64,000 nt of DNA, taken from positions 8,680,001-8,744,000 of the forward strand of contig JBHGNT010000011.1 in assembly GCA_043228905.1 (NCBI GenBank), read 5' to 3'. Both the position numbers and the translations under genes were made by a program. How positions within the stretch are numbered: position 1 is the first letter of the stretch; each line of letters begins with the position of its first letter. This DNA is from Azolla caroliniana (taxonomy: Eukaryota; Plantae; Polypodiophyta). The notes beneath the pieces are model-generated. The model worked only from the letters and a program-made list of their open reading frames with translations. It was not told the DNA's origin and did not search any database. Below are positions 6,712 through 60,000 of this stretch, in pieces.

Positions 6712-7675
6712 GAGATAGATAGATAGATAGATATATAGATAGATTATATTATCGTCTTCGGAGGTCAAATATGACCTATGAGACCAAAAATATTACATTT
6801 CACGTGATACATGTGAAAGTGAGTAGTCACTCTCGATGTTGAAGAACTTTACCAATGAATGTTGCAATCGAGAGTGCACATTGTGGTTGTGAGAGGAATT
6901 CATGCAAAGATTAGGCTCGATCGAAGAGATGTGGAAAACATGGTCGAATATGATCAAAGGCAGAGCATTGTATCAAAGTGTGATACTCTGACTCGCGAAC
7001 TTGTTTAGGGCAAAGTGTGTATAGCCGACCACTCTCATCACTTGTGCCCCAACGCCTTGTTTCACATCGCAATGCATGTGAGCTAAGTCGCATGGAAGCA
7101 ATGGTTCGAATGGCAGATAACGGTATGGGCTCTAACATGTATCGATGTGTACGATTTCCCCGTTCCGCAAAGAATATGGTTTTGTAGTTAGGTGCAACAT
7201 GTGTAGTATATGTGTGAAGCGCGAGCCTCCACATTTGTCCCATGTCATGATACATTGGCGTTGCAAAAAGGCCTCATTTACAGAGGAATCTAATGATGCA
7301 TCATGAAGCAAGTGTCTCGCATCCCATCTACCAAACCATTTTTCTATATCTTGCATCCAACCGGAACACAAAATTTTGCTTTTATGCATCTTTTGGATCT
7401 TTTTGCTTGCTTCCCACGCAATTCTAGGAAGTCGATGTGAGGGACTTTTTTGAACCTTAAGCATGTATTCAACAACCCTTTCCATGGCCATGATCTCAAT
7501 GGGAAGCGATCTCGTCTCAAGGAGGACGAGGGTGTAGGGCGTTTGTTTCTTAACTTGTAGAAACTTGGTAAGAAAATGCTTTTGGACATTTTCAAACTCT
7601 TTCCACATAGATTTAGGGATGCTACGGCCCCATACTTCCACCCCATAGAGAAGAACTGGTGTCACCAAAGATATT
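6712..7675 (-). mobile_element. RTE-X-like LINE, 5'-truncated (subfamily with (TATC)n tail)
   Basis: ORFs 7132-7713 and 6911-7255: PVLLYGVEVWG, RLSSHALRCETRRW...LC..VRESEYHTLIQC (RTE-X-type C-terminal CCHC); 3' hairpin 6754-6784; (GATA)n on the + strand 6712-6743. Confidence 0.78.
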
Positions 7676-12097: not shown

Positions 12098-12962
12098 GAG
12101 AACGTCCCTTGTCATTCCATCCCTATTGTCGGCACCACCGCCTCCCTCCACCGAAACAGGCTCTTCACACTATATGTAACATGACTAGAAGCTCGTCCAA
12201 GGCGGAGACTACAAGCTCCACTACTATTTATTGGCTTCTCCGCATCTATCCAACTTCGGAACCATCGGACCAGGAACAACATGATGATCCATATCCACAA
12301 CAGGATTCAGAAAACCTCCCAGACTCGAGAAGGTGCTTGCAGATCCTGAAATGCAACCCCTCCCGTCCCCCTACTGGTGAGCACCTAAGCTTTGATTGAT
12401 TAGACATGCCCAACTCGAATTTGGTGGCCAAGCCTCCACTACTAGATTTTGGTGGTTGTGCAATTGGGGGATCGTCACCTACCATTGCTGCCGTGACTGC
12501 TCTCTACCCAAGAACACCACTCGGCATTTTCTTTGATGAAGCAGAAAACCAAAGAAAAACCAAACGCTCTCGGATGTCAGGTTTCAAAGCAACTTAACGT
12601 GGCGTAGAAGCAATAAAGAAAATAAGGGAACGTGAGGTACATCGCCTACAAGCCATGGCTAGGGCACTCTATACACTGAAACCATGGGTCACACCTACAC
12701 CAAACCCCTTTGACCTCCCATTTCTTTTCGCGAGGCTTGGGTGGAAATGAAATTAGGCTTAGTGCAAAGTCACTTCCTTTTATCGAGTATACCACGTTTT
12801 GTACACCACTAGAACTCTTTTAGTTTAAGTTCTATTTTTACTTTATTTTATTTTAGTTTTGATGATTGGATAAATACCAATTTTGTTGTAAACCAACTGT
12901 CTCATGGGCCAATTTTGGCCTTAAGAAGACGTTAATATATCTTTCTTTCTCTCTCTCTCTCT
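12098..12962 (+). mobile_element. Retroposed element ending in the RTE-X-like 3' hairpin and (TTTC)/(TC)n tail
   Basis: 12899-12941 GTCTCATGGGCCAATTTTGGCCTTAAGAAGACGTTAATATATC then TTTCTTTC(TC)n, the same terminus as the other LINE copies; the upstream body has no recognisable RT motif. Confidence 0.55.
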
Positions 12963-30000: not shown

Positions 30001-33000
30001 AGGAACACAACCACCACCCCGACTTGAACTCCTCCCAGTTGAGTTCAAACTCGATGGACCAGCCACATACTTGAGCTGGTCACGTCGGATTATAGGTGCC
30101 TTGGCAAGGAGAAGGCTTGACGGCTACCTAACTGGAGTAGAAAGAAAGAAAGAAAGATATATTAACGTCTTTTAAGAGGCCAAAATGGCCTATAAGACCG
30201 AATAAGAGATTACATCTTAAATGTTTTCTCGTCTTTGAGAACAAATCAAAATAAAGTAAATATTACACAATAAATATAAAAGTAAATAAGATGAAGAGAA
30301 AAGAGACGAGAGAATCTGGTTTTTGGCACATGCGAGATTCTCAAGTTAGGTGTATTGTAGCCTTTGTCTCCGAAAGATCTCTATCATAGGTAGAGAAAGA
30401 ACATCCTGTCAAAACGAGCAATGAATGGAAAGCATGGAGAGCTACCCACGCGTCTTTGTACAAGTGGCTTCTCAACTCCATGGTTCCATAAATCGCCACA
30501 ACTGTTAATGGAATTTTAAGTGTGAAGGAGATATGGGAGAAATTGCAAAAGACGTATGCTGGGTGGGGAAACAACATGAGAGTATTTCAAATCGAGCAAG
30601 AGATAGATGCAGTTTGGCAAGGAGATAGGATGATTGATGAATATGCCATAGAGCTGGAGCGTCTATGGGCAAAATATGATCATTTCTCACATGTGACAGT
30701 GTGCAATGATCCTCAATGTAAGAGCAAGGAAATTTCTATTCAAAGAAGAACCATGCAATTTTGAAACATCTCAACCTGTCGTTTGATCAAAGAAGGGCGG
30801 TTCTTCTAGCCAAGGCTAAAATTCCCACACTTGATGAGGCAATTGCGACTATGATACAAGAGGAGAGTAGAATGAAGCTGCTCTCTGACACTACCGGACT
30901 TCCAGGGGTATGATTGGCACTAATGGTGTCAAATTCAAGCGGAAGTGAAAATCGAAAATGCTACAATTGTGGTGAAGCTGGTCATTTAGAGAATGCTTGC
31001 CCTAAACCAGCTAAGGAGAGAGAATATGGAGGACATGGACAAACTAAAGGTCGTGGTCGATGGGGTCAAAGAGGTGCAATAGGAGGTCACCAAGCAAACC
31101 TGATGGTAGCAAAAGAACAGGAAGGAACTAAGGTGGTGTTCACTGAAGAGGATCAAGCTCTCTTAGAAATACTTAGGAGAAAGCAAAGAGCTGTAGATGA
31201 TACTTCATTCATGTCAAGAGGTAACATTGCCACCTATGCTTATTCAGCCACAAGTACTAGCAACACAAATACTCTTGCCTCTACACCAAAATGGATAATT
31301 GATTCTGGTGCATCTAGGCATGTGATGGGTAATGCTAGTGAATTCTCCTTGTATACTAACTTAGCAATGCCAGAAAGCATTCAAATTGCTGATGGTACAA
31401 CACAACCTATAGTGGGTATAGGTATAGTAAAATGTACTAACTCTATGACATTGTCTAATGTGTTGCATGCTCCTTCTTTCCCAATAAACCTATTATCCAA
31501 AAGTTCTATCATACACCAACTAAAATGTGTTGTTTCTTTTGATATTCCCAAGGTCATATTCTAGGAGAAAGGGACAAGTCGGAGACTTGGGACTGGCACA
31601 TGGCATAGTGGACTATGGTATTTGGATCATCAAGGGCTGGATTCAGCATTAGCATCTATGGTAAAGGGAACAGATGTAAGGGGATCTAAAATGAGTTATG
31701 AGGAGTTGTTGATACTTTACCACCAACGTATGGGACATACCTCTTATGGCGTTTTGAGTCAAATGTATCCACACCTTTTTGAAAAGGCTGACAAAACAAA
31801 ACTTGTTTGTGACGCATGTGAATTTAGTTAGCTTACTAAAAGCTCATATGCTAGTTCAGGTCATAGGAGTTCCCATGCATTTGATGTAATACACTCTGAT
31901 GTTTGGGACCATGTTCCACAAATTCTATTAATGGATATCGATATTTTGTCTCTTTCATTGACTGCTTCTCTCATGTGACTTGGTTATCTTTTATGAGGAA
32001 AAAGAATGAAGTATTTGCTGGTTTTAAAGATTTTCATAGAGCAGTTCAAACTCAATATGGTGCAATTGTAAAAGTGTTGAGGTCTGATAATGGAACAAAG
32101 TATGCTAACATCACATTTAGGGCATACCTCTCAAATCAAGGAATACAACATCAAACTACATGCCCATATACACCAGAACAAAATGGAGTAGCAGAGAGGA
32201 AGAATAGACATCTTCTAGAGGTAACAAGAAGCATGATGATTTCTATGAATGTCCCAAAGCAGTTGTGGGGACTGGCAGTTTTGACGGCTACTACATTGAT
32301 CAATAGAATGCCCTCTAGAGTATTGGAGTGGAAATTGTTGTAAGCGAGGAGGGTCGTCTGTGCGGAAGATCAAGGAGCATTCGATTCTTTTCTGCAGTAC
32401 CTGCGTATGAGAGATTGTAGGTCGTTGCACAGAGAGAGAGAGAGAGAGAGAGACAAAGAGGCACAAAAGAGTCTTTGTTTCATAAAGCAAATAATACAAC
32501 AACTAACCTCACAAAGAGGTTACAAGGTCACTATATATAGTGACCGACTTAGGGCAACTACCCTTTATGCTAATTACATAAATGGCCAAAACGGGATAGT
32601 GTGAATACGTCCATTATACACATGTATTCGACACTCCCCCGTAATGGGCGTATACATGGGTTATCTAAGATTACAGGTATAGACTTAGGTTCTCGGACAT
32701 ATCAGCTTTGTTCGAGTCGGCAGGGTCCGAAGGCAGAAGACCGAACTGGTCGGGTCGGAACAGTTGAAGCCGATCATTAAGGAACTGATGTCGGTTGTCG
32801 GGAACCATCCTGCTCTGTGTCCGGCTCTAACCGGACTGGTTCGTCGTTACGCCCATCTGATGCCGAAGAGACCGAAAGCGGTCTGCCGAAAGACACTTGG
32901 TCATTCCATCTGCGACATTGTCGGTTGTGGATATTTTCTCTAGACCGATTTTCCCTGAAATGACGCAGTCCCGAACGAAGTGATATCGAACGTCGATATG

Positions 33001-39000: not shown

Positions 39001-42000
39001 CAGACCAATGCAAACCATACAGTGTTTTTACAACACAAGGAGCATACTACATTACTTGCGATGTATGTGGATGATATAATTATCACAAGTAACGATGAAG
39101 AAGAAATTGTGCAATTGAAGGTGAAATTGGCTAAAGAGTTTGATGTGAAGGATCTAGGATTGCTACGATACTTTCTTGGAATTGAGGTAGCTCATGGAGT
39201 AGGAGTTGTTCTATCTCAGCGAAAATATGTATTAGATCTTCTCACAGAAATTGGAATGTTGGGTTGTAGGCCCATAGCTTCTCCAATCGACCAAAAGATC
39301 AAGCTGACTGAACTTGCAGGAGAGAAAGTTGATCGTGAAAGGTATCAAAGATTGGTAGGTCGACTAATTTACTTGACTCATACCCGTCCAAATATTTCAT
39401 TTGCAGTAAGTGTGGTAAGTCGTTACATGCATGATCCGAGGAAAGATCATATGGATGCAGTGTACCATATTTTGAGATATCTCAAAGGTGCCCCGGGGAA
39501 GGGATTGATCTTTAGAAAACATGGTCATTTTAACATTGAGGGCTATTGTGATTCTGATTGAGCCAGTTGTGCTGATGATAGGAAATCCACATCAGGATAC
39601 TACATGTTTGTTGGGAGCAATCTGGTCTCTTGGAAGAGTAAGAAACGGGTAGTAGTAGCAAGGTCAACAGCTGAAGCAGAGTATAGAGCTATTGTTGTAA
39701 GAGTTGCGGAGATGTTATGGCTGAGAACTCTCCCAGTAGAACTAAAGGTGAATCAAAAAAATCAGATGATGTTGTGGTGTGACAATAAGTCAGCAATCAG
39801 CATTGCCAACAATCCGTACAGCATGATAGGACCAAACACATCGAAATCGACAGATTCTTTATCAAGGAGAAGCTTGATAATGGAATATTAAAATTGGGTC
39901 ATGTTTCTATTGAACATCAAGTAGAATATTGTCTTACAAAGGGACTTGGGCCAGTAAGTCTTACTAGATTGTGTGACAAGATGGGCTTAGTGGATATTTT
40001 TCGCCCATCTTGAGGGGGAGTGTTGAGAATGATTAAAAGTCATAACGGCTAGCCCAACGGCTAGTTAGCCCAATGGCCAGATCTTGGCGTTTATAAAGAG
40101 GAACCTTCTCCTCATGTAAAAATGAGCGATCTCTGTATTTTCTCCCTCTTGTTGTGACATACCAATGTATATTACTGAACAGATGGGCCTTCTCATTTTT
40201 TAATTATATGTAAAAAGAAAAGAAAAAAGCAAGAATTGTAAAGAAACGAGTGTGATTCTATGCAAAAGATGGACCATGGCTTATCACATTAGACATCCCT
40301 AGTTACATTCCCATCATGCAGCATGTCTGCAATCGTGCTCTCAGCGGAATAGATTAAGGATGTGTGCTATGTGTGTGTGTGAAAGAGGAGAGAAGAGAGA
40401 CACAAGATAGATAGATAGGAAAATGAGGTACTCAAGATGGATGTCTGTATTAATAAGTGGAGAACAATTACAAGGATATGAACATTACAAAGGAGATTAA
40501 CCAACATTTTACAAAGTCGGAGGGTGGTTTATATAAGATCACCCTCTCTCTACACTCTCTCACTAAAACGCCCACTCTCTCTCTAGAACCTTGGGGAATG
40601 TGAAGACTCATTAGTTATGGGGAATATGGAACTCATTAGTTACGTGTCATAGAATATGATTCTATGACACATAGTTAATGCGTAGAAAGTAGTGGTGACT
40701 TTTGAAAGAAGGAAGAATAGGAAGGCTAGAAGAAGTGAGAGGAGTCTTAGTAGAAGAAAGAGAGAAGAAGAAAGAAAGAAAGAAAGAAAGATATATTAAC
40801 GTCTTTTAAGAGGCCAAAATGGCCTATAAGACCGAATAAGAGATTACATCTTAAATGTTTTCTCGTCTTTGAGAACAAATCAAAATAAAGTAAATATTAC
40901 ACAGTAAATATAAAAGTAAATAAGATGAAAAGAAAAGAGACTCTGGTTTTTGGCACATGCGAGATTCTCAAGTTAGGTATATTGTAGTTTTTGTCTCCGA
41001 AAGATCTCTATCATAGGTCGATCCAGAATGGAAATGTCTCCAAAGCGAGGGAAGCACCTACGATGGCGGGAGATAATGGCTTTTATTTGTCGATGACAAG
41101 GGTGTCGAGGTCGTGGTCCATGGGGCCAGGGCCTACGTGCACGGCAAATTGCCATTGCCCGATCAATCGTAACCCCTTTGTTATATCCTGGTCTGGATCC
41201 CATTTCTGTATCCTGGGGTTGACTTCTAGCATTAGGAGTGATGGAGCTAAAGAAAGTTGTGATTGTTATTTGTGGATGAGCTTGTGTGGTTGTATTCTTC
41301 AATAACTTGTCCCGATGTCTCTTGAGCTCTCGCAAGAAAAGTCCTAGGCATCGTTGGTCCTCATATTCCATTACCTTGCGTAGTGGGCCAAAGCCTTGTT
41401 TAAAGAGGCAATGGTATCTCCCTCTGATTTCATAAAAGACACTACAATGACAAACATAGTGTTCTTCGGATTCCACTCCTTGATGACACAATTGGCAAAT
41501 TCTCTCTTCTAGAGGTAGTCGTGTATATCTGCCCACCTCAATCTGTAGCTGATGTGATGAAGTTCGCAGCTGCCCTATCACACTACGCAGGGTTAACAAT
41601 TGGAAGAAGGGTTGTTATTTTAAGAGTTCAAGAAGATTGTATTGTTTTCCTAATTGTATATTGAAGTATTCTTTTCTCTTCTTCTTCTTCTTCTCTTCTC
41701 TATCATTTTTCTATCTCTCCATCAGTATACACCAGCCAATTTCTTATGATGTTCATGGATGATTTTGCCATATTTCACTACAGTGTGGATCTAGTTTTGA
41801 GTACAATAAAACTGAATAAGTGCCATATTTCATAGACGGAAGTTCGGGTGTTTAGATTCATCGCATCAAAGGAAGATTCTTGTATGAATCCAGTTAAGTT
41901 CAAAGGCCTTCTACAGAAACCATTACCATGACCTTGAATAAATGCAATGTATCCACTCTTAAAAATAATTGTTTCCATGTTTCCTATTCTTTTGCCTGAC

Positions 42001-45000
42001 CTCTTCAACCTTTTCAAGGGGATTTATGTGGAAACTGGTTCCCTTGAATTCAAGTTCACACAGTTAAAGATTAATTAATAGCTTGAAGAATTCAGTCACT
42101 TAGTAAAGGAATTCAGCATCGAATTCTACCTCTCTAGCAAGTCCAAGAGCATGTAACTTGCGTGCAAGTGATTCTGCAACTTCAATAGTCACTTTTCCTG
42201 AACAAATAAAAAATCTTGTTAGGATTTATCTCTTCAAATCATGAAATAAAGGATTTCTATTAGAAGAATTATGAATCCTTGCAGTCATACATTGTGTTTC
42301 GAGTTGCATGCATACATACATGGGAAAGGATAAATCCCAGTTCCCATTGAGTCTTCTTTTATCTTGAGTTACATTTTATTGGACTGAAAAAATACAGATT
42401 TCTGCTTTTTTCTATAAATTATATTGTATAACTCAATTCTTATGCAACATCATAAGAGGTATACCAAATAAAGTTTTCAAACATGATCAGGATATTAACC
42501 TATACAATCCTAGTACATTGAAAACAAACAACTCTTCGAGAGAACAGTAAGATTTTACCTCCAACTGCATTTACTTCTATGGTATCCCCAATCCTTATCC
42601 CCTCTTCACCTGCATCTAGAATTGCAACATGAACTTGTTCCAGCATAGGCACTTTCATATCATCATATTCTTCATAAATGTCAATAGAATGCCAATCTAA
42701 ACTCTCTGATCTAATGTGATCCTGTGAATCACATTTATCTTCTCTCACAGGATTAAGAAACTGAGGATTGTTTGAAATCAAACTCTTCACTTGGACTAGC
42801 TCAGAGCTCCCAGGTACATTTCCTTCATGAGAACCTTCTGCGGGTGAAAAGTTGTAAAACTCTAATACAGCAAACTTGCTAGTATTCCTTGTGAGAATAC
42901 TTTCAAGAGACATTACTGCAGTGTGAGCTTTGACTTCAATACCCGGAAAACCTCTCTCTCTCCGCTGACCAAAGCCACCTTCTTCACATGTTGAACCAGT
43001 TCTAATTTTTGTTGCATGTGAATCTTCCGATGTAAATAAATCCCTCTTGCGTTTTCGCGTGGTCTCATCTTGATCTTTTTCACCGATCCCCTTTTGAGGT
43101 AGAAATGGTTCAATGGAAAGTCCACCAGATAATACATTGGAAAAAAGATGGAACAGCTCACCCCACTGTGGTTCAGGTCCTAAAGTCACCCAATCTTCAT
43201 CTAAATGTGATTTCATATTTTTGAGCCACAATTCAAATGTTTTAGAGTCGTAACTAGTAGTAAGGGCAAATGGAGATGAAGCTGAATTTTGATAGAATTT
43301 TGGCGAGAGCACAAAAGCATGGCATTGGTTCCCGACAGCCTACATACATCATAAATATCCACAGATAAAGCAATAAAACATTTTACAACAATTTTATTGA
43401 CAATTTCCTATTTACATTTCATAGCTTAGAGAAAGTGCTTAAAAACAATTCATTCTTAAAAAAATTCATAGGTTAGAGAAAGCATACCACCATAGACTGG
43501 TCCTTAAGAAAATTGAAAGCCATGAAAACATCAGCTTCCTTACATCGACGCAATGCATCCACTAAAACTTGTGATACTTCGGACTCCACAGCTGAGTTTA
43601 GAAAAACTAATTTTATCAGCTCTACAGCCACTGCTGCACCCACAGAGTTTTGTACCCTCTCACCACTACCAAAATCTTTCAACATGATTGGTCTTTGCAT
43701 TTTCTTCCGAACATTAAAACGATTCGGTCTGGTTCTAGCAGTAACAGAACTTTTCGTATTAGCAACAGTGTATACATTTGTTAAGTTCCCTCCCATTGTG
43801 TCATCTAAATCTTGCAGGACATTTTCTCTAAAGCCTTTATCATGACAAGTGTTATTGCCTGTCGCTGGAATCGAAAGTCTCACATCACTAGCCTCAAACC
43901 TATGAGGATCTATAATATTCGGAAAACTTTGCTGGCCAAATTGTGAGCTCCTTAGATTTAGGGAGGAAGTATCCGCACTTTTCTTCAAAGAGGTTGATCG
44001 TGCTGCAATCTTGCATCGAATAATATGATTGATAGCAGCATTAAGTGAAGGATCCTCAAAATCATCCCAGGCATAAACTTTACAAGCAGATGCTACTCCC
44101 AAATTTTCTTCACCCATAGAGTTGCCTGAGTCATTGTCTAATCCCTGACCCTCAGCATGGAAACGAAGATATTTTGTGTATCGTGTTGCAAGCAGGTTAG
44201 AGAGTGCCATCATAGCCTTCCGAACGGCAGGAATCATCTTAAGAACAACGCTTCTCCTGCTACATGTTTTTGGGGGTGCTGGTAACCCTGGTATTGTATT
44301 CCACTCCACACGATTGTATCTTGCACCTAGAATTGCTCTTTGTCTTGTATAACATGCAACAAGAACCCTAGAAAAGAAAAAAGAGAAGGAAATTTTTACA
44401 AATATAAAAAGTGGCAGAAAGCATGCTCATTTGTCATAAAATTTGGGCAGCTCACCTGTCTGCTGCATCTGTCCACATATATTTCTTCTTTCGAAAGGGA
44501 CGAAATTTTCTAAGTACAATCTGCGGGACAGAATTTGGCTGCACATCTTTTGAATCATTAATACCTGCAGGATTTCCTGTATCTTTGCTTTTCCCCGCTG
44601 AAGCTGATTCCTTTCCTCTGACAGATTGATGTTCTTCACAATGTCTTTTTGTAATTTCTAGCCTAACAGATTCTGTGTTACCATCAGTTGATGCTGGGCG
44701 TTTCTTTGCCATATTTCTAGGTCCTAATGCTATGTTTATCTGTGATGAGTTCAGAGAATCATCTTTTGAAATTTGGCTCTCCTGCAGTTTAATTCTTTGA
44801 TTCTTTTCATATGAAACTCCCAAAACCTGTCATAGGAAAGTCACCGAGTTTAAATGTAGTACACAGCCTGAACAAAATCTTTGAATAGAAACATCATATC
44901 TATCCCCTTTACTTTGCTAGCCAAGATTCAAATTCCAATTTACAAAGTACTTTTGTGTTCAAAATGATTTTGAAGAGATATTTATCTATTGGTGTGCAAG

Positions 45001-48000
45001 AACCAGGCAGGATATGGGATAGTTATGAGCACTTTTAGGATTTATTGTGTCAGACCTCTGCTCACATAGTATTGACTTGGAGCGAAAGAAACTTTCCCAA
45101 TGGGTGTTATTACGTTATCAAATGATCACCATTCAGGTTAAATTAAGCAATTATCATAGGCCTCAAAATAATCAGCAAATAAAATCCATAATAGCATGAA
45201 AAAAAACTACATTAACATCTCTTAAGAGGACAAAATAGCTTATAAAATTAGAGAACACGATTACATCATAAAATGTCTTCTCTTCTTTCATAATAAAAAA
45301 CCAAAATAAATACAACTAAGCATATGATAATACAATCTACATATCTAAGAACTTGATTCTAAATTAAGATAGACTTCTTTGAAAAATCTCCATTATGGGC
45401 CACTCCAAGTAGAGAGGCATCTGAAGTGAGGAAGCACCTCAGTTCGGGTAATAACGGCCTTTAATTCTCGGTGATGAGGATGAATAAACCATGATCCAGA
45501 TGGCAGTGGCCTAATTGCACTAAACACGTCCATTTCTTGGTTCATTGTAACCCATTTCAAGTGTCCTGGTCAAGAATCCACTTATGTAGTCCTTGTCTCA
45601 TTTGGAGGATGTATGATATGGCCCCAGAAACTCGTGATTATTCTTTACTGATCAGTTGTTGTGGTTCTAATGTTGTCCTTCAAGCAAGAACAGTCCCAAG
45701 CACCATTAGTCGTCATATTCCATCATCTTGCATAAGCAGGCCAAAGCGTTGTTTGAAGAGACAATTGTATCTCCCTCTTATTTCGTAAATCACACAACAC
45801 AGGGCCAAACATAGCGTACTTCCAATTCCAACCCCCCATGTCACCTTGGCATATTTCGTTCTTCCATAGGTTTGTACACATATCTTCCTATCCAATTTCT
45901 AACTAATGTGCAAAGGTCCCCAGTTGCTCTATCACATTAAGAAGTGACAGACAGCAAGCCCTTCTTAATCCCAGGAACAAACCAAACTGGGTCTTGTGTT
46001 AGCTCTTGACCATTTGCCATGGCCACTTGAACAACACCACGTCCTTCGATGTTGCAGGCATGGTTGGTGCCCAGGTAAAACTTCCCAAAATTGCCTGCAG
46101 AAAATGAGAGAAAGCACTCCTTAGAAAGAGTGCAATGAAAAGAGGCACTAGACTCAATTATCCAAGTCTACATGACAGAATCTTGTACATCTAATAACGC
46201 ATTTACTATAGCTGTATTGGTAATTTTAATTTCTGCAGCACACTATGTCCTCCCTGTCAAGAATCTCCTCGATGATGATTCCAAGTGCTATATTTGCCTT
46301 CTCCCTCTCTTTTCCTTTGTTATTGTCCACATCATGTGTCTTTCCTAATGTATCTTTCTGATTCTTCTTCCTTCTTTCAAGCTCTTGTTTGTAAAATCCA
46401 CAATCAGGCTTTTTATGCCCTTTACAGCCACACTGAAAGCAAGTGATTTCTTTCCCCCTACTTTTGCTTCTAGACCTTTACATTGACACATTCTTTGTTG
46501 CAGCTCTCCCTCTTGTTATGTTGGCAGAACTAGAAGGCCTTGAACTCGGTTGAGTAGTATTATTGGCCACCATCAGACCGTAAGCATCGACTCTTGCGAT
46601 TTGTCTCATTTTCCACACAATTCTTTAACTTGAGAAAGTGGGAGAAGACCTCACTTTTCAACTTCACCGGGCATATCCAGGTATGCCGCGAATAGTTGTC
46701 AATGAAGGTAACGAAGTACCTACACCCACCAATTGTCATTGTTTGAGCTGGGCCCCATACATCTGAGTGGATGACGTCCAGCAAGCCTTTACTCACATTT
46801 CTTTCACTTAGGAATGGATGCCCGCCTATGTTGCTTGCCTAGTTGGCACGCCTCACATACATTATCAAGATGTTTCAAAATAAATCGTGGCAATCCGTGC
46901 ACAGCCCCTTTTGTTTGCATTGATCGGAGTTTACCAAGGTTTACATGGCCAACCCTTTTGTACCACAACTCAATATCAGACTCCATCTTGAGTCCCTTTG
47001 CATAATTTGCTATGTTCACCTCTGTCGCATCAAGAATAAACATGTGACCTTCTCTTCTTGTATGAGCGATAAGTTGGCCTCTATCCTCGATGAAGCAACC
47101 TTGCTGGTTGAATCGCACTTGCATTCCTTGTTCGACCCTAAACCCTAAACCGAGACCAAATTCTTTGTGATTGTCGGCACATGCAATACATCCTTCATGT
47201 AGCCCTTGTTGTCGTGATTGTTAAGGGCCACATCTCCAATGTGCTCAATCATGTGTGTGGAGTCATCATCGGTCTCCACCACGCCGGGTCTCTCGGGTTC
47301 CCTCAAATTCATGAACCATTCTTGATGACTTGTCATGTGATTTGAGGCACCTGAGTCCATGAACCATACATCATCAGGTTGGGAAACACTTGTTATCATG
47401 CTATTCGCCCGGTGTCACATAACAAACATCGGCGCTTTGTTTTCTAGGTCAGCCATCACAGCATAGTTTGTTTGTTGCCGGGGTGAGGCAGCTGAGTCAT
47501 TCTTCTTCTTCCGACACTCGGCTTCAAAGTGGCCAGGCTTTCCACAATACCAGCACTCGGTTTGCTGGTTCTGCCTGGTTGATGCAGGCTCGTGCAAGCT
47601 CCCCTTTTTGCCGGAATTCCCTCGGCTGTTTCGGCCTTCTTGCTGCCTGGAATTAAAGTGTTGTGGACCTCATCCACCTCTTCCTCGGCCATTCCTCCCC
47701 CGATTTCCACGACCACGACCGTGACCTCGACCGAGATCATCATGTGTATATAGCATCTCTGCCCATCAAATGCCGTGCTTTTCGACCGTGTATGGTTCTC
47801 CTCAACCATTAGCATGGATTGCAAGTCGAAAAAGCTTGGGGGGTTCTCCCTTGTTGTTATGGCAGTTCGAAATGAGCCATATTTTTGTGCGAGGCCGCCA
47901 AGCCAAATATGCACCATCTCGTCATCATAAACTGCGACATTGATGGAGCCAAGTGAATCGCATAAATCTTTGATCTGGAGGATGTAGTCCGTCACGGACA

Positions 48001-51000
48001 TATCCCCCTGCCGAATATTGTTCAACTCCTGCCGGAGTTGAAGTTTTCTCGCTGTGGTTGAAGCCGCGAAAATCTTCTTCAAGTTTTTCCACGCTTTTGT
48101 TCGGGATTTCCCATCACGAATATAGTTTAACATGTGATCTTGCACACACGTTGCCAAACAATACATCACCCTACCGGCGCCTTGTTGCCATGTGGGGTAG
48201 TTGGGATTTGTACTATCGGGGGCTGTTTCTTCAGCTCCCTCGATATAACTCCAATACCCTTGCCCAACTAGGTATGGATGCATCTTATATTCCCAAGATG
48301 CATAGTTGTGCCTGTCCAACTTCTCTGCTGGAAGTGCGCTACCCATCTGTGCATTCATTTTTCTGATTTAGCTTGATTCATATGATCCTGTTAACGTGAG
48401 CCTCTTGCTGTGCAAAACTGCAGCAATGATAGCAAGTTTTAAAACAGCGTCTATAGCTGCTCAAACAGTTACAATGGTAGAGCTCAGTGAAGGATCTATA
48501 ACCCTCACGTTCTAATACCATGTAAAGAATCTAACTATAGTAGAGTTAAGTATTCAGGAGCGTAGTGTGTGTGTGAGAGAGAGAAAGAGTGAATGTATAA
48601 GCAAGAAAGAAACAAACAAAGATATATTAACGTCTTTTAAGAGGCCAAAATCGCCTATAAGACCAAATAAGAGATTACATCTTAAGTGTTGTCTCGTCTT
48701 TGAGAACAAATCAAAATAAAATAAATATTACACAGTAAATATAAAAGTAAATAGCATGAACAGAAAAGAAAAGAGGGAATCTGGTTTTGGCACATGTGAG
48801 ATCCTCAAGTTAGGTATATTGTAGCTTTTGTCTTCGAAAGATCTCTAGCATAGGTCGATCCAGAATGGAAATGTCTCCGAAGCAACGGAAGCCCCTACAA
48901 TGGCGGGAGATAATGGCTTTTATCTGTCGATGACAAGGGTGTCGAGGTCGTGGTCCATGGGGCCGGGGCCTACGTGCACGGCAAATTGTCATTGCCCGAT
49001 CAATTGTAACCCCTTAGTTATATCCTGGTCTGGATTCCATTTCTGTATCCTGGGGTTGACTTCTAGCATTAGGAGTGATGGGGCTAAAGAAGGTTGTGAT
49101 TGTTCTTTGTGGATGAGCTTGTGTGGCTGTATTCTTCAACAACTTTTCCCGATGTCTCTTGAGCTCTCGCAAGAAAAGTCCTAGGCATCATTGGTCCTCA
49201 TATTCCATTACCTTGCGTAGTGGGCCAAAGCCTTGTTTAAAGAGGCAATGGTATCTCCCTCTGATTTCATAGAAGACAGTACAATGACAAACATAGTGTT
49301 CTTCAGATTCCACTCCTTGATGACATGATTGGCAAATTCTCTCTTCTAGAGGTAGTCGTGTATATCTGCCTACCTCAATTTGTAGCTGATGTAATGAAGT
49401 TCGCAGCTGCCCTATCACACTACGCAGCGCATAGGATAGATGTATGTCCATGTAAGGTGTCCTAATGACAAATCTATCCTTCGATGTATGTAAGAAGTGT
49501 GTCTTATAGTGGGCCATCTTTGTATCAAGTAGTATTTTGGGGTTGATCTATGTTATCTAGTTTTCCAAGTTAATAATATCAGTTCGGATCACTCTATTCT
49601 TTTCCACATTGGTCATATTGAGATTGGGACAGTCCAAGCTATATTGGAACGGGGGCAGTGCATTTATACTCATGCCATGTGACTCGAACCATTGCTGCAT
49701 TTCAGCATACCAACAATGACTGTCTCCATTTTCAGCCAGTTGTCTTGATGACATAAGTGCCAACCTTGGGTACCTTCGTTTAGGGAGCTCCCAAAGACGT
49801 TGGATAAATGTCACTGATCGGAACAATGCCTCGGTTATTATAGGTGCTGCTCCCATCTCTTCCCGGATTATATGGTGGGGCACCGATGCTTTGCTCCTTA
49901 TCATGCGAGCAATCATTGACACTAAAGGTCTCTCTAAATCTTTCCAATGATTTGCCTTGTTAAGACTCGGCCCCCATGTTTCTACTCCATAGAGAAGAGT
50001 TGGTGTGACAAGTGTATCAAATAACCATAGCTTAGTCCGTGGCTCTTGAAACTGCAAATGTGCACATTGTCTCTCGAGAGCACCAAGGGCTTCATATCCA
50101 CGAGAAAGTCGGGCACAAGCGGCCTCCTGTAAGGAGAACCTAGGTCCTATAAATGTTACTCCTAGGTATGTGTAGGAGCGTGTGTATTCCACCTTTTCCT
50201 CTCCCAAGAAGAATTCTGGTTCTGATCTTGTTACCCATGCTTGGGTGGTGTTAAACACCATCACTTTAGTTTTATTCATGTTGATAGACAAACCTTTGTC
50301 CGTACAAAATAGTTTTAAGGCATTTAGATGCCTTTGTAGTCCCTCCGGAGAGTCAGAAATCAGCACAATATCATCAGCATATAGTAATATCTGTATAGCT
50401 ATACCTGCTATGTGCGCTCCGAAACCACCAAATCTCTCTATGTATTGTGATATCTCATCTATATAGAGACCGAAGAGTGTGGGGGGATAGTGGGCGTCCT
50501 TGCTTCACGCGAATTGTGCTAGCCACCGCCTCTAACAAGCCCTTAGGAGACCGAAGTTTTCCTGACACAGATTCATAGAGTGCATAGATTCCCCATTGCA
50601 TATCTATAGGAACACCAAGGGCTTCTAGCCGATGCATAAGCCGACCACGTGGCAGTGTCAAAGGCTTTTCGGAAATCCACAAAGCAGCAATAAATCCTCT
50701 TATTGTGGGCTCTGCCCTCCTCAATAAGGGCCCGGAGGGTGAATATGTGATCCAAAGTTGTGAACCCCTTCCGAAATCCTGCCTGTCCAATTGAACGACA
50801 GCCATTTTGCTCTGCCCATATACTCAATTCTAATTCTAGAATCGTGCCATATAGTTTAGCCATGTAATGGCCAATCATGATTGTCCTATAGTTGCTTGGC
50901 ATCATGGGGTCTCCACTCTTGAGGATTGGCACAATGGTATGCTGAGTCCATCTAGTAGGAAAACCTTCACACATGGCTCTATTAAAGATGTGTGCTAGCA

Positions 51001-54000
51001 ATGGGAGCAACTTGTCACGGGCATAGATAAAGTGTTCACCCACCAATCCGTCATGATCTTGGGCCTTCCCAAATTGTAGCCAATCAATGGCATTTCTTAC
51101 ATTTTGTGGTGTAAAGAAGGTTGATTTATGTGGGCGTGAGGCATTCGGGTGGGGAAGAGGAGGTTGCCCCGGGATATCATATAGGACCTTTGCATATTCA
51201 TGCCACACCTGAGGTGAGGTCAGTTGTGTGGTGAGCTGCCTCTCATTAAACATTTTCCATGCTCTTTTACTCTCTCGTCCTAGAAACAAGCGATACAAAT
51301 GATCTTCAAATTTAGCCAAATATAATCTCTTCTTCTTCCTTACGAGGCGTTGGAAGGTTGCTCTCGCTTGGTTGTGTGTATAAATGCCCCTACGCATGAC
51401 CATATGGAATTGCAACGGCTCTCTACGGACAGATGTCGGATATTTTGAAGATACATTTAAAAACACAGATATTGCTATATATACAGAGACTCACCAATGC
51501 ATGGCTAGCAAACTCCCCGAGGTACAAGGATATAGATGGGAGTCAATATGTCGCCCCCAACCTCGGACACGAGGAAGCACTAGCGGTTCGGGCGGAGTGG
51601 CTGTGCTATACAAAGAGGAGCTCCATGGTAGAGTGCATGTTGTCCATAAGGATGTGGATGGACGCTACATGTGGATATGCATAAAAAGAGGAGATCTTCG
51701 GGAGCTATATATTGCAATTAGCTACTTTCCACCTGCCTACTCAAGGTTTTGCACCTCTAGGTGAATTACCATATCTACCTCTATATGATGATATCATAAG
51801 ATTTGCTACTATGGGGGACATAATACTATTAGGAGATTTTAATGCACGAGCCAAGGATGAACAAACAACTATGTTTAACACCAACGAGGTTGTTTATGGA
51901 GAAGTTATGGTAGAAGAGGTTGGTCTAAAGAGAAAAGCTCAAGATATGAGTGCTATAACTGAATATGGAAAACACTTTCTAGCCTTGGGAAGCGCGCATG
52001 GATTTGTGATATATAATGGCTTGACACAATGACCTAGATCAGATGCTTTGACATGTTGGAACCCAAAAGGGGGTGCAAGCACAGTCGATTATCTAATGGG
52101 ACCTCCATCTCTTATACCTGAAATAAAAGTGTTCACTATGTTGGGAAGACCCTATTGGCTTGGCAGTTGATCATGCATATCTACGCTTTGAGGTAAAGGA
52201 TGGATGCACAAAGGATGTATATGCTAAGGAGAGTGGGCTGGCTAAGTATCTATTCACTCGCGAGACAATTGATGTCTATAGTTGTGTATACAATGGCATG
52301 CTAGATTTGGATCCTTTCTCACCCCTTGAAGAAGTTACCTAAGGTTTATCCAAATCATTGCATAAAGCAGCCACAAATGCCTTCCCTCACACAACGGCCA
52401 ATCCCCCCAAACTTGGTAGAGTAATACAAAATATTTGGTATGATGAGGAATGTCGTGATACAAGGATATGCTTGCAGCGTGATTCCAACGCCTCGTAAGG
52501 AAGAAGAAGAGATTGTATTTGGCTAAATTTGAAGATTATTTGTATCACTTGTTTCTAGGAAAAGAAAGTAAAAGAGCATGGAAAATGTTTAATGAGAGTC
52601 AACCTACCACACAACTGACCTCACCTCAGGTGTGGCATGAATATGCAAAGGTTCTATATGATATACCGGAGCAACCTCCTCTTCCCCACCCACATGGCTC
52701 ATTCCCACATGAATCAACCTTTTTAACTGCACAAAATGTAAGAAATGCCATTGATCGGCTACAATTTGGGAAGGCCCAAGATGATGATGGATTGGTGGGT
52801 GAGTACTTTATCTATGCCCGTGACACCTTGCTGCCATTGTTATCACACATCTTTAATAGAGCCATGTGTGAAGGTTTCCCTACTAGATGGACTCAGCATA
52901 CCATTGTGCCAATCCTCAAGAGTGGAGACCCCATGATGCCAAGCAACTTTAGGACAATCATGATTGGCCATTACTTGGCTAAACTATATGACTCAATTCA
53001 AGAATCAGAATTGAGTATATGGGTAGAGTGGAATGGCTGCCATTCAGTTGAATAGCGAAGCGCTGTGTAGAGAGAGAATGAGTGAGAGAACAGCGCCATA
53101 GCTGTGTGAGCTTAGACGCCAAGAGCCCTGTGTGGCTGATACACTCTGCACAAAGAGAGTGTTGTATACTGTCCCCTTTGTATTCTCCATTGTATAGCAG
53201 ATCTCTGTTCCCGTGGTTTTTCCCCATTTAGGGTTTTCACATAAAACTATGTATTCTATGCATTTGCTGTTTTCTGTTCTTCCGCGTTATTGTGTATTTC
53301 ACATTCGGTCTTCCTCACGAATCGCAAGGATCAAATTGCATCAATCTGGTATCAGAGCGAAGGTTAAAGATGGAAGGAGGTGTGAGTGGCTTCCCAGGTA
53401 TGATAGTTCTAAACTCTCAGAACTATGCAGATTGGAAGATAAAGATGGAAGACCTTCTCACAGTCAAAGACCTGTACGAGCCAATCGACAAAGCAGAAAT
53501 ACCCACGGGGGTATTAGGGTCTGAATGGAAACGTCTGAACAAAAAGGCGGTGGCCACCATCAGACAGTGTGTCGATGTAAGTGTCCTTCAGCATGTGGCG
53601 AACTATACAAATGCCTATGAGATGTGGCAAAAGCTATCGGGTCTATATGAGAGGAAGAATGCCCTCAACAAAACATCTTTGATGAGAAAGATTGTGAGGC
53701 TCAAATACAGGGACAGAGAAAGCATAGTGCAACACGTAATCACATTCATGGGGTATGTGAACCAACTTGCAGCGACCAAGTTTCCCCTTGAGGATGCAAT
53801 GCAGGCCATCCTGCTACTGTGTACCCTGCCGGACAGCTGGGAGAATCTAGTGGTGACTCTCAACACTTCATGTCAAGAAGAGAACTTGTCTCTACAAGCG
53901 GTAAAGACAAGCATCTTGAATGAAGAGACAAGGACAAGAGTATCTTGTCCCAGTCGGAGTCAAACTTGACTCAACAAACCGGCCGGCAACGGAAGAAACC

Positions 54001-57000
54001 GGCAAAGAAGTCTGCAAAGGAGGGATAAATCCCATGCCAGATCCAAGTCCAGAGATAAGCTCACATGCTTTTACTGTGGAAAGCCTCAACACTTCCAGAA
54101 GGACTGTCGACACCTCAAGAAGGACAAGGGTGTCGGTAGTTATGTCGAACCCAAGAAGATTCCTGATGAAAAGGACACATCCATTGTAGCTACGAGTGCA
54201 TAGGAGATCGTGTTCATCTGTGAGTAGGCAAGCATGAATCTTGCAAGTGAAGAGGGTTCCTGGGTAATCGACTCGGGTGCATCTTTCCATATAACTCCGT
54301 CGAGAGAGTGTTTCTCAACTTACACAGCCGAGGATCATGGCTATGTAAAGATGGGAGATAATGGGGAATGCAAGATAGCCGGCATTGGGAGTGTAAGCTT
54401 GTTGACGTCGACAGGTTGTCGACTAACCCTGAGGGAAGTTCGACATGTCCCTGATATCATATTGAATCTGATATCGACTGGAAGGTTGGATGACGAAGGC
54501 TTCCGAAACGGCAAGTGGAAGTTCTGCCGAGGAAACCTCATAGTGGCCAGAGCATAGAAAGAGGGCACACTGTATATGATGCATGCGCGACTATGCAAGT
54601 CTGAAGTGAATGTGGCAGCCAACTTGAGTGGAGAGTTATGGCATAAGAGGCTTGGCCACATGAGTGAAAAAGGAATGCACATCCTGGCCGACCAGAAACT
54701 TCTCCCAGAAGTGAAAGGAGTACACTTGGAGAAGTGTGTTGATTGCTTAGTCGAAAAGCAGAACAGAGCAGCATTCCACTCAAGACCACCGAGAAGAAGA
54801 GAGGTGCTACTAGAACTAGTACACACAGATGTGTGCTATGTAGATGCTCCATCGCATCGAGGTGGACAATACTTCGTGACGTCCATTGATGACTACAGTC
54901 GAAAGTAGTGGGCTTTTATACTAAAGTCGAAGGACCAAGTACTATCGTTTTTCAAGGAGTTCCAAGCTAGAGCCGAAAGAGAGTCGGGTCGGAAGTTGAA
55001 GGCTGTCCAAACCGGCAATGTTGGCTAATATAAAGGGCAGTTCGAGGAATACTGCAAGGCCCAAGTTATTTGAATCGAATACACAATGCCGAAGATCCCT
55101 GAGTTGAACGGGCTTGCAAAGAGGATGAATCGAACGATTATGGAGAGAGTAAGGAGCACGTTGTCGCATGCTAAGCTGCTGCAATCTTATTGGGCTGAGG
55201 CGATGTATACAGTTGTTTATCTGATCAACAGGTCTCCCTCAATGCCATTGAAAGGTGATGTCCCACAAAGGGTGTGGACAGGAAAGGATGTCTCCTACTG
55301 ACACCTGAGGGTGTTCGGATGTTTAGTGTATATGCATGTGGCTAAGGATCATAGGTCAAAGCTCAATAGTAAGTCGAAACCATGCATATTCATGGGATAC
55401 TCGGAGGATGAGTTCGGCTCAGGTTATGGGACTTAGTTGATAAGAAAGTAGTGAGGAGTTGGGATGTAGTCTTCTTGGAAGACAAGACGATGGAGGACTA
55501 GAAGAAACAAAAGTTGGAATCAACTTCCCAGTCGACTCCCACTACTACCGACTTAAGGCCAAGTGAACCGACACAGTCGACAACTTATGCAATGAAAATA
55601 ACCAAAAATTAATAAAATACACAGTATGGGGATGACAACTTATGCACTGAAGAAAGAAAGAAAGAAAGAAAGAAGAAGAAAGATATATTATCGTCTTTTA
55701 AGAGGCCAAAATGTCCTATAAGACCAAATAAGAGATTACATCTTGAGTGTTGTCTCGTCTTTGAGAACAAATCAAATCAAATAAATACTACCCAGTAAAT
55801 CTAAAAGTAAATAAGATGAAAAGAGAAGAAACGAGGGAATTTGGCTTTTGGCACATGTGAGATTCTCAAGTTAGGTATATTGTAGCTTTTGTCTTCGAAA
55901 GATCTCTAGAATAGGTCGATCCAGAATGATCATGCGTAGGGTCTCATAGGCCATATATCGTCATGCGGTTCTCTTCTCTGTAATAATGACCTTGTCATCT
56001 CTAGATACGGCCCATTTGCCTTCCTTTCTTGCATCAAGCACTCGTCGCATGTTTTCTTTGCAGTGTGCCACTTGGGCTGGAGTGAGATCGTCGTCTAAGT
56101 ATATCTTTTCACCCTTGAGTGCCTTTCTTTTAGAGAGGAAAGCTTTTTTCTTGTCAATATCCATGAAGCGGATGATAAGGGCTTTAGCTCTACACTCATC
56201 TCTTCCCACCCTCCACACCGAAGCAAAAGGAATATCTGATGCTCCAATCTTTGTTCCGAGATTCTTGGCATCTTCTTGTGGACTTCCTTTTTCGGCCCAA
56301 CCAACCACTCGTACATGCAACGCACGAGCTTTCCTCTTGGCTTCTTCTTCTAATGTAGGATTCATCATTGTCGTCCTATCCATGGATGTTCCTTTTTGCT
56401 TTTTCACTACCTCTATCCAAGGAGCATTTGCTTTAATTTCGTTTTGGGCGTGCTCAGCTTGAGCTTTGGCATGTTTGGCCATGTCTGCCCATGTTTGCAT
56501 TTCCTTAGTGACATTGGCTTTCACTGTAGAGATGCATCTTTCCACTGCTTCTTGTCCTTTTTCTAAATCCACTTTTATAGCTCCTAACTCAACCTTACTT
56601 GAGGATATTTCATCCTTAAGGTATTGTGTCATGTCATCCTTGAGCTCTAAGTGTGAATTCTTCACAAGGTTTATTATGTCTTTCAGCATCTCTTCTAATA
56701 ATTCAATCTTGAGAGAGGCATACAGCTCTGTTTTCTGTTTCTCTATCTCTTTTTTCATTTCTTCTTTTAGTGCTATTACTATATCCTCTCTAATAGATTG
56801 ATCTCTTGCGCAATCAAATGGGGTAATAGATCATGTTTCCCATTTTCGACATCAAATGGAATGTCGAATGGGGCCTGCGTTCTGGGTGCCTTGTGCACCC
56901 TTCTAACGCTATTTGAGGTGCTTCCATCCCGTCCTTTTCGTCTATGGTATCTTCTTGGGGTCTTCCATGGATCCGGACCCTTGTCGTGCGTGTTAAGATC

Positions 57001-60000
57001 CATCTTTTCATTTTCTATCCATTCAAACTCCATGGTGTCTTAGGACAGCAGGTATAGGGTATGAAATGCTGAGGGCAAATGAAACAATATAGATTCCAGG
57101 AATTTCTATTGGCCAGAAAACACAGAGGAACAGATTTGGTGGAAAATGCAGGGAATCAGATTTGGCAGAGAACGCAGAGGATCAGGCATTGCAGAAAATG
57201 TAGAGGACTGACATTGCAGAAAACGCAGAGGATTAGACATTGCAGAGAACACACAGGGCAGTCATTGCAGAAAATGCAGAGGCAAATACAGAGCCTAAAC
57301 CCTAAACACAGAGACAGAGAGAAAGAAAGAAAAAAAGATATATTAACGTCTCTTAAGAGGCCAAAATAGCCTATAAGACCAAATAAAAGATTACATCTTG
57401 AGTGTTGTCTCGTCTTTGAGAACAAATCAAAATAAAATAAATCAACTAAAGATCATCAATTGAACACAATGGGCCAAGGGAGTTTTATTTACAAGTCCTG
57501 AAGGGACTGCCACATTAAATGTGGTTGGTGGAGTCTACTCATAGATATCCACTCGAGTACGATTCTGTCATAAGAATATCTAATATTCTTTGACCACATT
57601 TACACTTGACAACTAACTAGATATCACGATCTAGTTCTTTGTGTAACTAGATGGTTCACACAGATGACAATAAAGTGTGCTCACGTACTTTTTAACACAT
57701 TGTGCTTTTCTTCATAAGCACATGTTCACACGAGTTGAGCTTGATTCTCAACAATTTCCAATTGTGGAGGCATAACGTAGTGACTTGACAAACCTTGTGT
57801 GACCTCTCTGGATATGTATGGATCCAATTCAAGGATTCCATTATAATACACATTACCCAGAAAAATAAACCCACTATGATTTGCATTTCTGAAATGAATG
57901 CATCACAATATAGACACAAGTTTAATCAACAATGTTGGACGCCTGTTTGATGATCACACTGAAATAAACAGCAATGCAATTAGTACTAGCACACAGGGTA
58001 TACACTACATTGTCTCAATATTCAAGTTTTTGAATCTTAATGATGTAGCAAGCATTTACATTTATTTGAAGCAATGCAGTAATTTATAATGACAGAAAAC
58101 ATCACCTGATCAAGGGAAAGATTCAGTTCTCGGGCAATTCTCACACATTCTTCGTATGGAAGCCGCCTGTTGTCATGGAAACCAATCCGCTCGTGAAGTT
58201 TCCTTCGCTGCTCCATGCTCATAACTCTTAAGGATGACCACGATCGAGCCCCAAAGAGCTTATATATGTTATTGACATTAAAAATAAAATAAAAAAGACG
58301 AGGAGAATTCACCAAATCATTAGAAAATTTCACACAAGAAAGTAGGGAAAAACAATTATTGTGAATGACATCAACTGGTAATGTTATACCTCTGGTACTG
58401 TTGAACCGGGAAAAATACGCCTTGCAATTTGAGATTGTGATCCACGATAGAAATACTCTAAACTCTTCCAATATTGTTCCAAGTTTTCTTTTGATAAGAG
58501 TTTAAAATAATGTCTAGGAGAGGGGCCAAGATTCAAAACGTGGGCAGATATTGATGATGGTGGCTCAACAGCTGGTTCATCAATATAAGGATTCAACTCT
58601 AGTGCATAGGCTACCCCAGCTTGTGCAGACTCTTGCATGTGATCTCTAGCAACCGAAGGTATCATAACAATCCTGAGCAACTTGAAAGAATATTCACGTT
58701 TTAGCAGGTCAAAAGATAGTGAAAACGTCTAGAACTTAGGAAATTTAAGCATACAAGAGACAACATGCATATTATTCATAATACCATAAATCAGCTACCT
58801 TCAATCGTCGGAGAATATCTACAAGCCAAGCAAGGCGCCCACTTGCATTTAAATCTAGTAATGTTTCAGATTCCTTTCGAGGAAGGTCAGATAATCTCAT
58901 TCCACGCCTACAGCGCTCAGCAAGTCCTTTAATATGTTTGGCTGAACCAATGACCTGCAAGAAGAGTTCCAATGGCATGGACTGTACTGCAACAAGCAAT
59001 GAAAAACTACCCCCATCACTATTGATCTCCATAGATGCATCATGTTCCTCCAAATTAGCATTTTTATCAGTTAAACCAGAAGTATAAAGCCACAAAAACT
59101 GATGAAGCATTCGACATCGGACAAGCTTCGCAGAAATGAAACCATTATCTTGTAAAGTATCTCCTTTGTCCACAATTTCAGGCTTAGGCATTCTCTGCAC
59201 TCCATTTAAAGTAGGAATTTCTTCATCTGTCTTTGGTTTTCTCCAACGGCTTGAGCTTTGGTGGCGCACCAGCATGTCGAAAGCCCGTTGATGCTCATAG
59301 ATTTCAGTCATAATATCTGGCGATATGTCAATAGATGGTAAAAGCACCACGTCCACTGTGCGAATTTGCCCATAATTTGACACACCAGGAAGGCTCACTA
59401 GCATACATTTGCAACGTCCTTCCCTCTGCAGTTTCTGCAGGTTACGTACCACAGTCTTCCTATCAAGAATGGTGTTTTTGCGATCTTCAAGCTCTTCCAA
59501 CCACTTATGCAGTTCACTCCGAAGGATAAACTTCTCCTTCTGTTTTGAAAATGGAAAATGGAAAGAATTGAAAGTCTTTAAAACCTAACAGTTCCTTTTC
59601 TTTAAATGGAGAACTGAAAACAAACTAGAGATTATGTCCATAAGATGACAAAATGATAGAAAGGGGATGTTCTCTATTAACAGTTGCAATTCCGGGAACT
59701 GACATGAGTTTCCTATTATTGTAAGTTACAAACATAGATATTCTCTGTCATTTTCCTCATATTTCCATATAATTTCTTGATCTTTTCTTCTGAATTCCAG
59801 CCCAGTGATCTAAATTTTCTAATAGTAAAAAACAGATACTAGGCTTTGGCAGTCTTCTAGACTTGAAATATGTAACTCATAAATAAATGTACATGATTGC
59901 ACACACCTCTAGTCTTTCCATAATCCATATTTCCCGTTGCGTATGAGCAGTTGACAATGCCACAGTACGCTGGCTACATTTTGAAAATGCAATGGGCAAA

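Follow-up and report, generated by a model that had tools for sequence, protein, structure and literature searches.

In four LINE families of Azolla caroliniana, ORF1 and ORF2 lie in one frame with a single stop codon between them, and a stretch that starts 6 nt past this ORF1 stop complements the terminal hairpin's 5' strand in the same element. The predicted duplex comprises 13-17 bases counted from stop+7 or stop+9 and joins sites 3.3-3.9 kb apart. Comparison of the sequences indicates that this junction-to-tail complementarity is real and under selection, and the duplex very probably forms in vivo. On balance, we favor the reading that the predicted duplex is a helix that would stimulate readthrough of the ORF1 stop, giving an ORF1-ORF2 fusion.

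The pairing was noticed in a first-pass annotation of the window, by which we mean the whole 64,000-nt stretch of DNA analyzed here. The motif that opens ORF2, ATGGCCTATGAGACC, does lie at 55954-55940 (minus strand) as annotated; the arm GGTCTTATAGGCCAT matches exactly at both 30199-30185 and 40833-40819 and with one substitution at 55725-55711; and the two pair over 15/15 nt with one G-U. Within the window, GGTCTTATAGGCCAT has 7 matches at <=2 mismatches where 0.36 are expected, and 0/100 shuffles reach 7. The copy that carries both sites (Table 1) is not full length: ORF2 nt 1-29 are joined via a 3-nt CAT to the last ~55 nt of ORF2. This deletion junction occurs once in the genome, and the copy was therefore rejected as a non-autonomous family. 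The plus-strand piece at 51388, annotated as truncated at the edge of the motif, does have its edge there (the junction falls at the motif's 3' edge), but it represents the 5' end, in inverted orientation, of a copy that spans 48604-53050 and also carries a 570-600 nt duplication. For a clustering of 5' truncations at the 5' site there are only two cases, this one at window 51388 and one contig that starts at stop+15 of family C. Short tandem units and, near the 5' end, telomere-like TTTAGGG words are found at window 57253-57120 (minus strand) and in family A 5' UTRs.

Table 1. Features of the window that belong to the LINE families described here.
Feature	Position	Strand	Remarks
Family A LINE copy with internal deletion	55649..57253	-	5' UTR, ORF1, ORF2 nt 1-29 joined to the end of ORF2, then 3' UTR and microsatellite tail; decayed and present once
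ORF1	55961..57033	-	Coiled coil then RRM-CTD like human L1 ORF1p (profile matches 2ldy, 2yko); frameshift near 56830 here
ORF1 stop TGA	55961..55963	-	Same frame as ORF2; GCA-TGA-CGA-TAT-ATG fits xxA-stop-CGx-xxx-xxG, a readthrough pattern (PMC3159437)
5' site	55940..55954	-	Stop+7 to +21, complementary to 3' arm; core in all duplex families +9 to +21
Deletion junction	55926..55928	-	CAT microhomology; ~3.6 kb of ORF2 gone
ORF2 stop TAA	55871..55873	-	
3' arm	55711..55725	-	Terminal hairpin 5' strand and 5'-site partner; one substitution in this copy
Terminal hairpin	55693..55725	-	Two stems and internal loop; kept with compensatory changes in distant relatives
(CTTT)n microsatellite tail	55649..55682	-	
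Family A 3' arm	30185..30199	-	In 5'-truncated copy 30139-30394
Family A 3' arm	40819..40833	-	In 5'-truncated copy 40773-41589
Family A copy with 5' inversion	48604..53050		48604-51390 (-) and 51388-53050 (+); junction at ORF2 nt 14-16; arm 48664-48650
Family A 3' arm	57366..57380	-	In short 3' fragment 57314-57442
Family B 3' arm	6771..6785	-	31% ORF2 identity with family A; GTG opens its own 5' site
Family C-type 3' arm	12898..12912	+	Changes matched by family C 5' site

Elsewhere in the window lie two copia-type LTR elements, at 23810-29717 and 32336-37814, with intact polyprotein frames of 1377 and 1361 aa; their LTR pairs are 100% and 99.7% identical, marking both as very recent insertions. 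Exon-like ORFs at 42500-44426 and 58037-61556 (minus strand) resemble a host gene, with repeats in its introns, and are presumably winged-helix B-block (TFIIIC subunit-like) segments. A fragment of the C-terminus of an L1-type LINE ORF2 (zf-RVT), from a different clade, lies at 201-1151 (plus strand).

The elements combine the AP endonuclease and reverse transcriptase that define APE-type LINEs: RVT_1 was found in 6/6 ORF2 proteins and Exo_endo_phos in 5/6, family A falling below the Pfam threshold but showing 47% identity to family C. A profile of 15 ORF1s matches human L1 ORF1p chains 2ldy (E 5e-4) and 2yko (E 3e-3), a modest likeness, and a Pfam search of the same 15 returned no ORF1 family. 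One of the aligned ORF1s matches CBFB_NFYA (E 2e-6); the apparent source is the N-terminal extension of L255 (L255:293-1579), which would then be a segment captured from a host gene for NF-YA. As for LINEs generally, there are 5'-truncated copies that are anchored at the 3' end and carry a simple-repeat tail. From the likeness of their proteins, we tentatively place these LINEs in the RTEX (RTE-X) clade. Two ORFs, an AP endonuclease with reverse transcriptase and a microsatellite tail are features shared with RTEX, including the tails of green algal RTEX (PMC3747384), although two ORFs with such a tail are not specific to that clade.

Families B (window 6771-6785), C (12898-12912 type) and E were each followed to full-length copies in this genome. 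ORF2 is 47% identical between A and C, 31% between A and B and between B and C, and about 30-55%, in pieces, between E and B. The site at 6769-6785 had been read as a divergent subfamily whose arm pairs over 17 nt with the family A start. That match exists, but it joins two separate families; family B has its own 5' site, beginning with GTG, which pairs over 17 nt with its own arm, and in each of the four families the 5' site pairs with the family's own arm. The annotation had also cautioned that the ORF2 start was seen in one copy only, and had held that full-length copies lacking the motif there would make it a local inversion artifact. All 20 of 20 fetched family A stretches carry the motif, and 47 full-length copies across four families keep both sites, which removes that explanation. 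L037, of family A, has an intact ORF2 of 1231 aa with the arm 3.85 kb downstream. Among 70 fetched stretches of the four families, the 47 copies with both sites pair at 13/13 (28 copies) or 12/13 (19 copies) positions over +9..+21, and 9 further copies have the junction and no arm within 3.2-4.4 kb; because the copies surveyed were the best matches, this sample favors young ones. Family C has a fixed U-U mismatch in the duplex core, and 9/20 of its fetched stretches encode an ORF2 of 1247-1248 aa, making for many intact young copies. A degenerate pattern for the junction matches this genome 760 times against 1 for a reversed control, a figure that is not a copy number, since some of the matches listed are 3' ends read on the other strand. 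L034/L007 and window 45180-45940 were set aside as extra families, being old decayed copies without close relatives; L173 proved to be family C, and the nearest copies of L272 in this genome are family E. L141:600-1090 (minus strand) is a chimera in which a family A 5' part is joined to a family E ORF2 just inside the endonuclease. Relatives of these LINEs are also found in the ferns Pteridium aquilinum and Adiantum nelumboides.

A metagenome scan for relatives kept 79 loci out of 413, of which 29 reach the ORF2 N-terminus; four were dropped, L250 because it starts inside ORF2 and L242, L281 and L284 because their 5' parts are broken or unrelated. All 25 usable junctions have a single in-frame stop between ORF1 and ORF2, in the contexts UGA-CGR (10), UAG-CAA (10), UAG-GGG (4) and UAG-GAA (1). 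Over the 30 junctions compared in all, 29 are UGA-CGR, UAG-CAA or UAG-G, and the remaining one is a decayed copy with UAA-CAA. Readthrough types I-III of Firth et al. (2011) cover the UAG-CAA, UGA-CGR and UAG-G contexts (PMC3159437). One UAG-CAA junction reads exactly CAA-UAG-CAA-UUA, and several others are without the UYA half. Several rows are near-identical, so the tree resolves them into about a dozen lineages. The upstream ORFs align as ORF1 homologues, weakly in a GC-rich group, and the upstream frame is short in L235, L238, L283 and L305 (contig end or decay). The retention of one frame across a stop in a leaky context points to readthrough, and judging from these junctions ORF2 is likely to be made in that way.

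Restart offers another route to ORF2: ribosomes would end ORF1 and reinitiate 6 nt on at AUG or GUG, with the duplex masking or presenting the codon, as the first-pass annotation proposed and as in SART1/L1 coupling. All four families of this genome do have ATG or GTG at +7..+9 (AUG in A and E, GUG in B and C), which makes restart possible there; the homologous proteins P0005, P0006, P0008 and P0009 were called from the same place, and SART1 coupling requires structure downstream of the stop-start site (PMC5972666). Across the 30 junctions, however, the codon at stop+7..+9 is ATG in 9, GAG in 4, GTG in 3, ACG in 3 and another in 11 (including GCG, CCG and GGG). The non-ATG codons extend to duplex elements with intact ORF2, namely GTG in L083 and L159, ACG in L279 and GAG in L276, and L244 is a further related element whose ORF2 is intact without a start codon there. 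No Met precedes the endonuclease anchor residue in 10/30, one lies only 2-3 codons before it in another 10/30, and one is at codon 3 or 4 in the last 10/30; the conserved ORF2 start codon near the ORF1 stop that is a hallmark of termination-reinitiation is thus missing from this set. Restart would require neither the kept frame nor the readthrough contexts, and arm pairing explains U+8 and G+9, the latter being present in 26/30 junctions, as it is in the tobravirus-group pattern, with four TMV-type rows as the exceptions. We consider restart quite unlikely. What survives of the earlier proposal, besides a long-range duplex and its predicted exclusion of the 3' hairpin, is the link between ORF2 synthesis and the 3' end; that the duplex serves to hide an ORF2 AUG is not supported, ATG being found at the site in only 9/30.

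One TMV-type junction pattern was searched in this genome and gave 0 matches. Of 7,986 long candidates searched for natural ORF1-ORF2 fusion proteins, a weak test, one matched; it is a gene model from Adiantum whose domains are unrelated. Two contigs from runs presumed to be RNA cover the stop of family C; that no joint is listed in them at that point speaks neither for nor against readthrough. The viral contigs collection held no relatives of these LINEs.

When the tail arm was scanned along whole elements (3,779-4,943 positions), its best complement lay at stop+7 in 9/14, namely L037, L159, L246, L083, L220, L279, L239, L276 and, weakly, L235, whose pairing is partial only; the stop+7 duplex is absent from L237, L256, L258, L291 and L307. 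The duplex core begins after an 8-nt spacer, as in viral readthrough helices. Changes on both sides, at +10, +13, +17 and +21, compensate one another across families, which is the inter-site covariation that the first-pass annotation had called for. In 7 distinct rows, 89/91 cells are paired against 83.9 with the arms permuted (fraction 0.002), and with L235 and L237 added the count is 109/117 against 104.1 (0.006); the permutation takes no account of relatedness, and the rows belong to two clades. The 7 rows contain 6 G-U and 0 A-C pairs, the pattern expected of pairing in the sense-strand RNA (9 rows: 9 G-U, 1 A-C). Third-position identity over codons 1-7 is raised both in B/E/L276 (0.76 against 0.41) and in the C clade (0.93 against 0.70), and is not raised just past the stop in the TMV-type pair.

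Other comparisons gave a weaker signal. Cognate pairs are not always the best in a swap matrix, L239 scoring better with the family E arm, and when 40-nt windows were folded with a long tail, family A was equalled or beaten by 15/200 control windows. Such folding is noisy, with GC-rich elements high by chance, and was replaced by the helix scans. A functionless origin by chance, by an old inversion or by copying of the tail into the junction at the DNA level could draw on the relatedness of the rows and on L237, which has no match. It is nevertheless highly improbable that any of these accounts for a complement that ranks first in the element, that is kept with both-side changes across proteins 31-47% identical, with G-U but not A-C, and that coincides with raised third-position conservation. 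Within family C-type elements (L159, L167, L246, L244, L248), the 5' site has a second partner of 10-13 bp at ~stop+420, inside an insertion in the endonuclease domain, and this partner pairs the base that mismatches the tail arm; with a partner ~420 nt downstream, the 5' site of family C may not need the tail.

Elements with and without the duplex both keep the terminal hairpin, with compensatory changes, and it is therefore probably the older structure. Hairpin and duplex use the same strand, and the folding energies of both states predict, as the first-pass annotation had suggested, that they are mutually exclusive. Cofolding of the two sites is 11.5-21 kcal/mol more stable than two separate folds in 7/7 duplex elements, against a gain of 0.6-4.6 kcal/mol in 4 elements without the duplex, both figures omitting the cost of closing a 3.5-kb loop. 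The local region +7..+48 folds weakly in 6/6 duplex elements tested (z 0 to +1.2). The shared, covarying strand would also suit a duplex that acts in reverse transcription or RNP assembly only, keeping the 3' hairpin closed until ORF2p arrives, in the manner of Ty1 CYC, and leaving readthrough unchanged; the ORF2p of stringent LINEs binds a 3' stem-loop (PMC4176376). A masking strand could sit anywhere, yet it sits exactly at the readthrough-helix position in both clades, and we regard this restricted role as improbable.

Relatives without the duplex differ in what lies at the site. Three of them, the GC-rich L291, L305 and L307, are predicted to fold into a local hairpin from +7/+8 (z -4.4, -3.8 and -2.1), and no 42-nt window elsewhere in any of these elements scores better. 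A helix ~8 nt past the stop is predicted as a long-range duplex in 9/14 and as a local hairpin in 3, and is absent in L237, L256, L258 and L300, the last having no stem at the site. Both TMV-type-context lineages tested, L256 (UAG-CAA-UCA) and L258 (UAG-CAA-UUC), are without the duplex; L264 has a modest local stem, and its 3' end is not identifiable. A clear exception is L237, whose ORF2 is intact and whose stop reads UGA-CGG but which has no duplex (about 8-9/13) and no strong local stem, although its arm, like that of L249, pairs 13/13 with the 5' site found in its sister L238; L237 may truly have lost the duplex or may be a chimeric assembly. A reverse transcriptase tree of the fetched elements, midpoint-rooted for drawing, places the duplex in two well-supported clades, one of which the TMV-type lineages join at an open fork, a layout that fits one gain with losses as well as two gains.

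These relatives bear on a further possibility, that stop context alone gives readthrough and the duplex folds the 3' end beside the ORF1 stop against nonsense-mediated decay, or circularizes the RNA for packaging. The RNA does extend 3.4-3.9 kb past the ORF1 stop, and a poly(A) tail folded near a stop suppresses nonsense-mediated decay in human cells (PMC2689704). This account leaves unexplained the fixed 8-nt spacer and the fact that L291, L305 and L307 have their local hairpins at that very position, and the TMV-context lineages do without the duplex despite equally long downstream RNA. It is unlikely as the whole explanation, and protection from decay can act together with a readthrough helix.

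The nearest known systems are viral. The first-pass annotation compared the pairing with Ty1 CYC5/CYC3 and flavivirus cyclization; tombusvirus readthrough is closer. There, Cimino et al. (2011) found that a 3.5-kb pairing is needed for readthrough and proposed the same three benefits (PMC3234231). As in the PRTE-DRTE interaction of CIRV, an in-frame stop precedes the polymerase and the pairing reaches the 3' end over ~3.5 kb; the pairing excludes a replication structure, which here is a matter of prediction and covariation; and 3'-end quality control and cis preference were proposed, as we propose here (PMC3234231, PMC5893793). The two differ in architecture: the tombusvirus 5' partner is a short bulge in a large local stem-loop that pairs with a 3' hairpin loop over 6-7 nt (PMC3234231, PMC5893793), whereas the LINEs have no strong local stem, the 13-17 bp duplex is itself the predicted helix, and the host element encodes an endonuclease-reverse transcriptase. 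The LINE switch would thus work like PRTE-DRTE and, having no large local stem-loop, stand outside that class. The type II cassettes of tobra-, peclu-, furo-, pomo- and alphaviruses share the stop context, a 12+ bp stem, the 8-nt spacer and compensatory changes, the tobravirus group showing xxA-stop-CGx-xxx-xxG followed by a 12+ bp stem after an 8-nt spacer; their loops are about 100-150 nt, against 3.3-3.9 kb in the LINEs, where the 3' strand is part of the terminal hairpin (PMC3159437).

Among non-LTR elements, readthrough was suggested by Guerin et al. (2017) for ORF2 of Paramecium Group 3, from consensus sequences; these elements also have ORF1 and ORF2 in one frame, but form a ciliate-specific clade, and the available portions of the paper are silent on stop context, RNA structure and long-range pairing (PMC5405496). 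SART1 and mammalian L1 likewise express ORF2 from a bicistronic RNA, with downstream structure required in SART1, but they do so across an overlapping stop-start or a 63-nt spacer and as separate proteins, with no 3'-end pairing described in the text available (PMC5972666). The stringent LINEs ZfL2-1 and ZfL2-2 have a similar conserved terminal stem-loop before a microsatellite tail, for which the accessible part of the source describes no second distant partner (PMC4176376); binding by ORF2p is presumed for the LINEs here. The reviews, as far as their available sections go, name restart, frameshifting and 2A skipping for non-LTR ORF2, and not readthrough or 3'-end pairing (PMC5972666, PMC5009743), and the portions of PMC11203168 and PMC3747384 at hand contain nothing on readthrough or junction-tail pairing. 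In a literature search whose coverage was thin for subscription papers and Repbase Reports, we found no report of readthrough in RTEX or of junction-to-tail pairing in a LINE. LINE readthrough has thus been suggested once in print, for Paramecium, and junction-to-tail pairing appears to be new. The present analysis contributes the covariation across four families and other species, the finding that the codon at the site is often no start codon, and the alternatives of a local hairpin or a TMV-type context.

We propose the following sequence of events. Most ribosomes would stop at the end of ORF1 and yield ORF1p. On a complete RNA, the duplex would form ~8 nt past the stop and raise readthrough. 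A ribosome that reads through would unwind the duplex, allowing the 3' hairpin to refold just as the new endonuclease-reverse transcriptase appears, and the new enzyme would bind the refolded hairpin in cis; this handing over of the hairpin to ORF2p is a tentative part of the model. The net effect would be threefold: the RNA would be tested for an intact 3' end, the enzyme would prefer its template in cis, and translation would be kept apart from reverse transcription. Taken as a whole, the scheme is one that we put forward as a possibility: the 3' strand of a readthrough helix would have shifted to the terminal recognition hairpin, so that one switch licenses the fusion on complete RNAs only and then passes the same RNA on to the newly made enzyme. 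This would give LINEs a structural mechanism for cis preference, convergent with tombusviruses, and relatives would exchange a local hairpin, a long-range duplex and a TMV-type signal that needs no structure.

How LINEs make ORF2p, and how ORF2p comes to act in cis, are long-standing questions, and the answers studied are restart (L1, SART1), frameshifting and 2A skipping. The natural compensatory variants at both sites can guide the design of mutants. If the model is true, the ORF2 of these families has been mis-annotated as a separate protein, and a single kilobase-range switch would explain the ORF1:ORF2 ratio, template quality control and cis preference.
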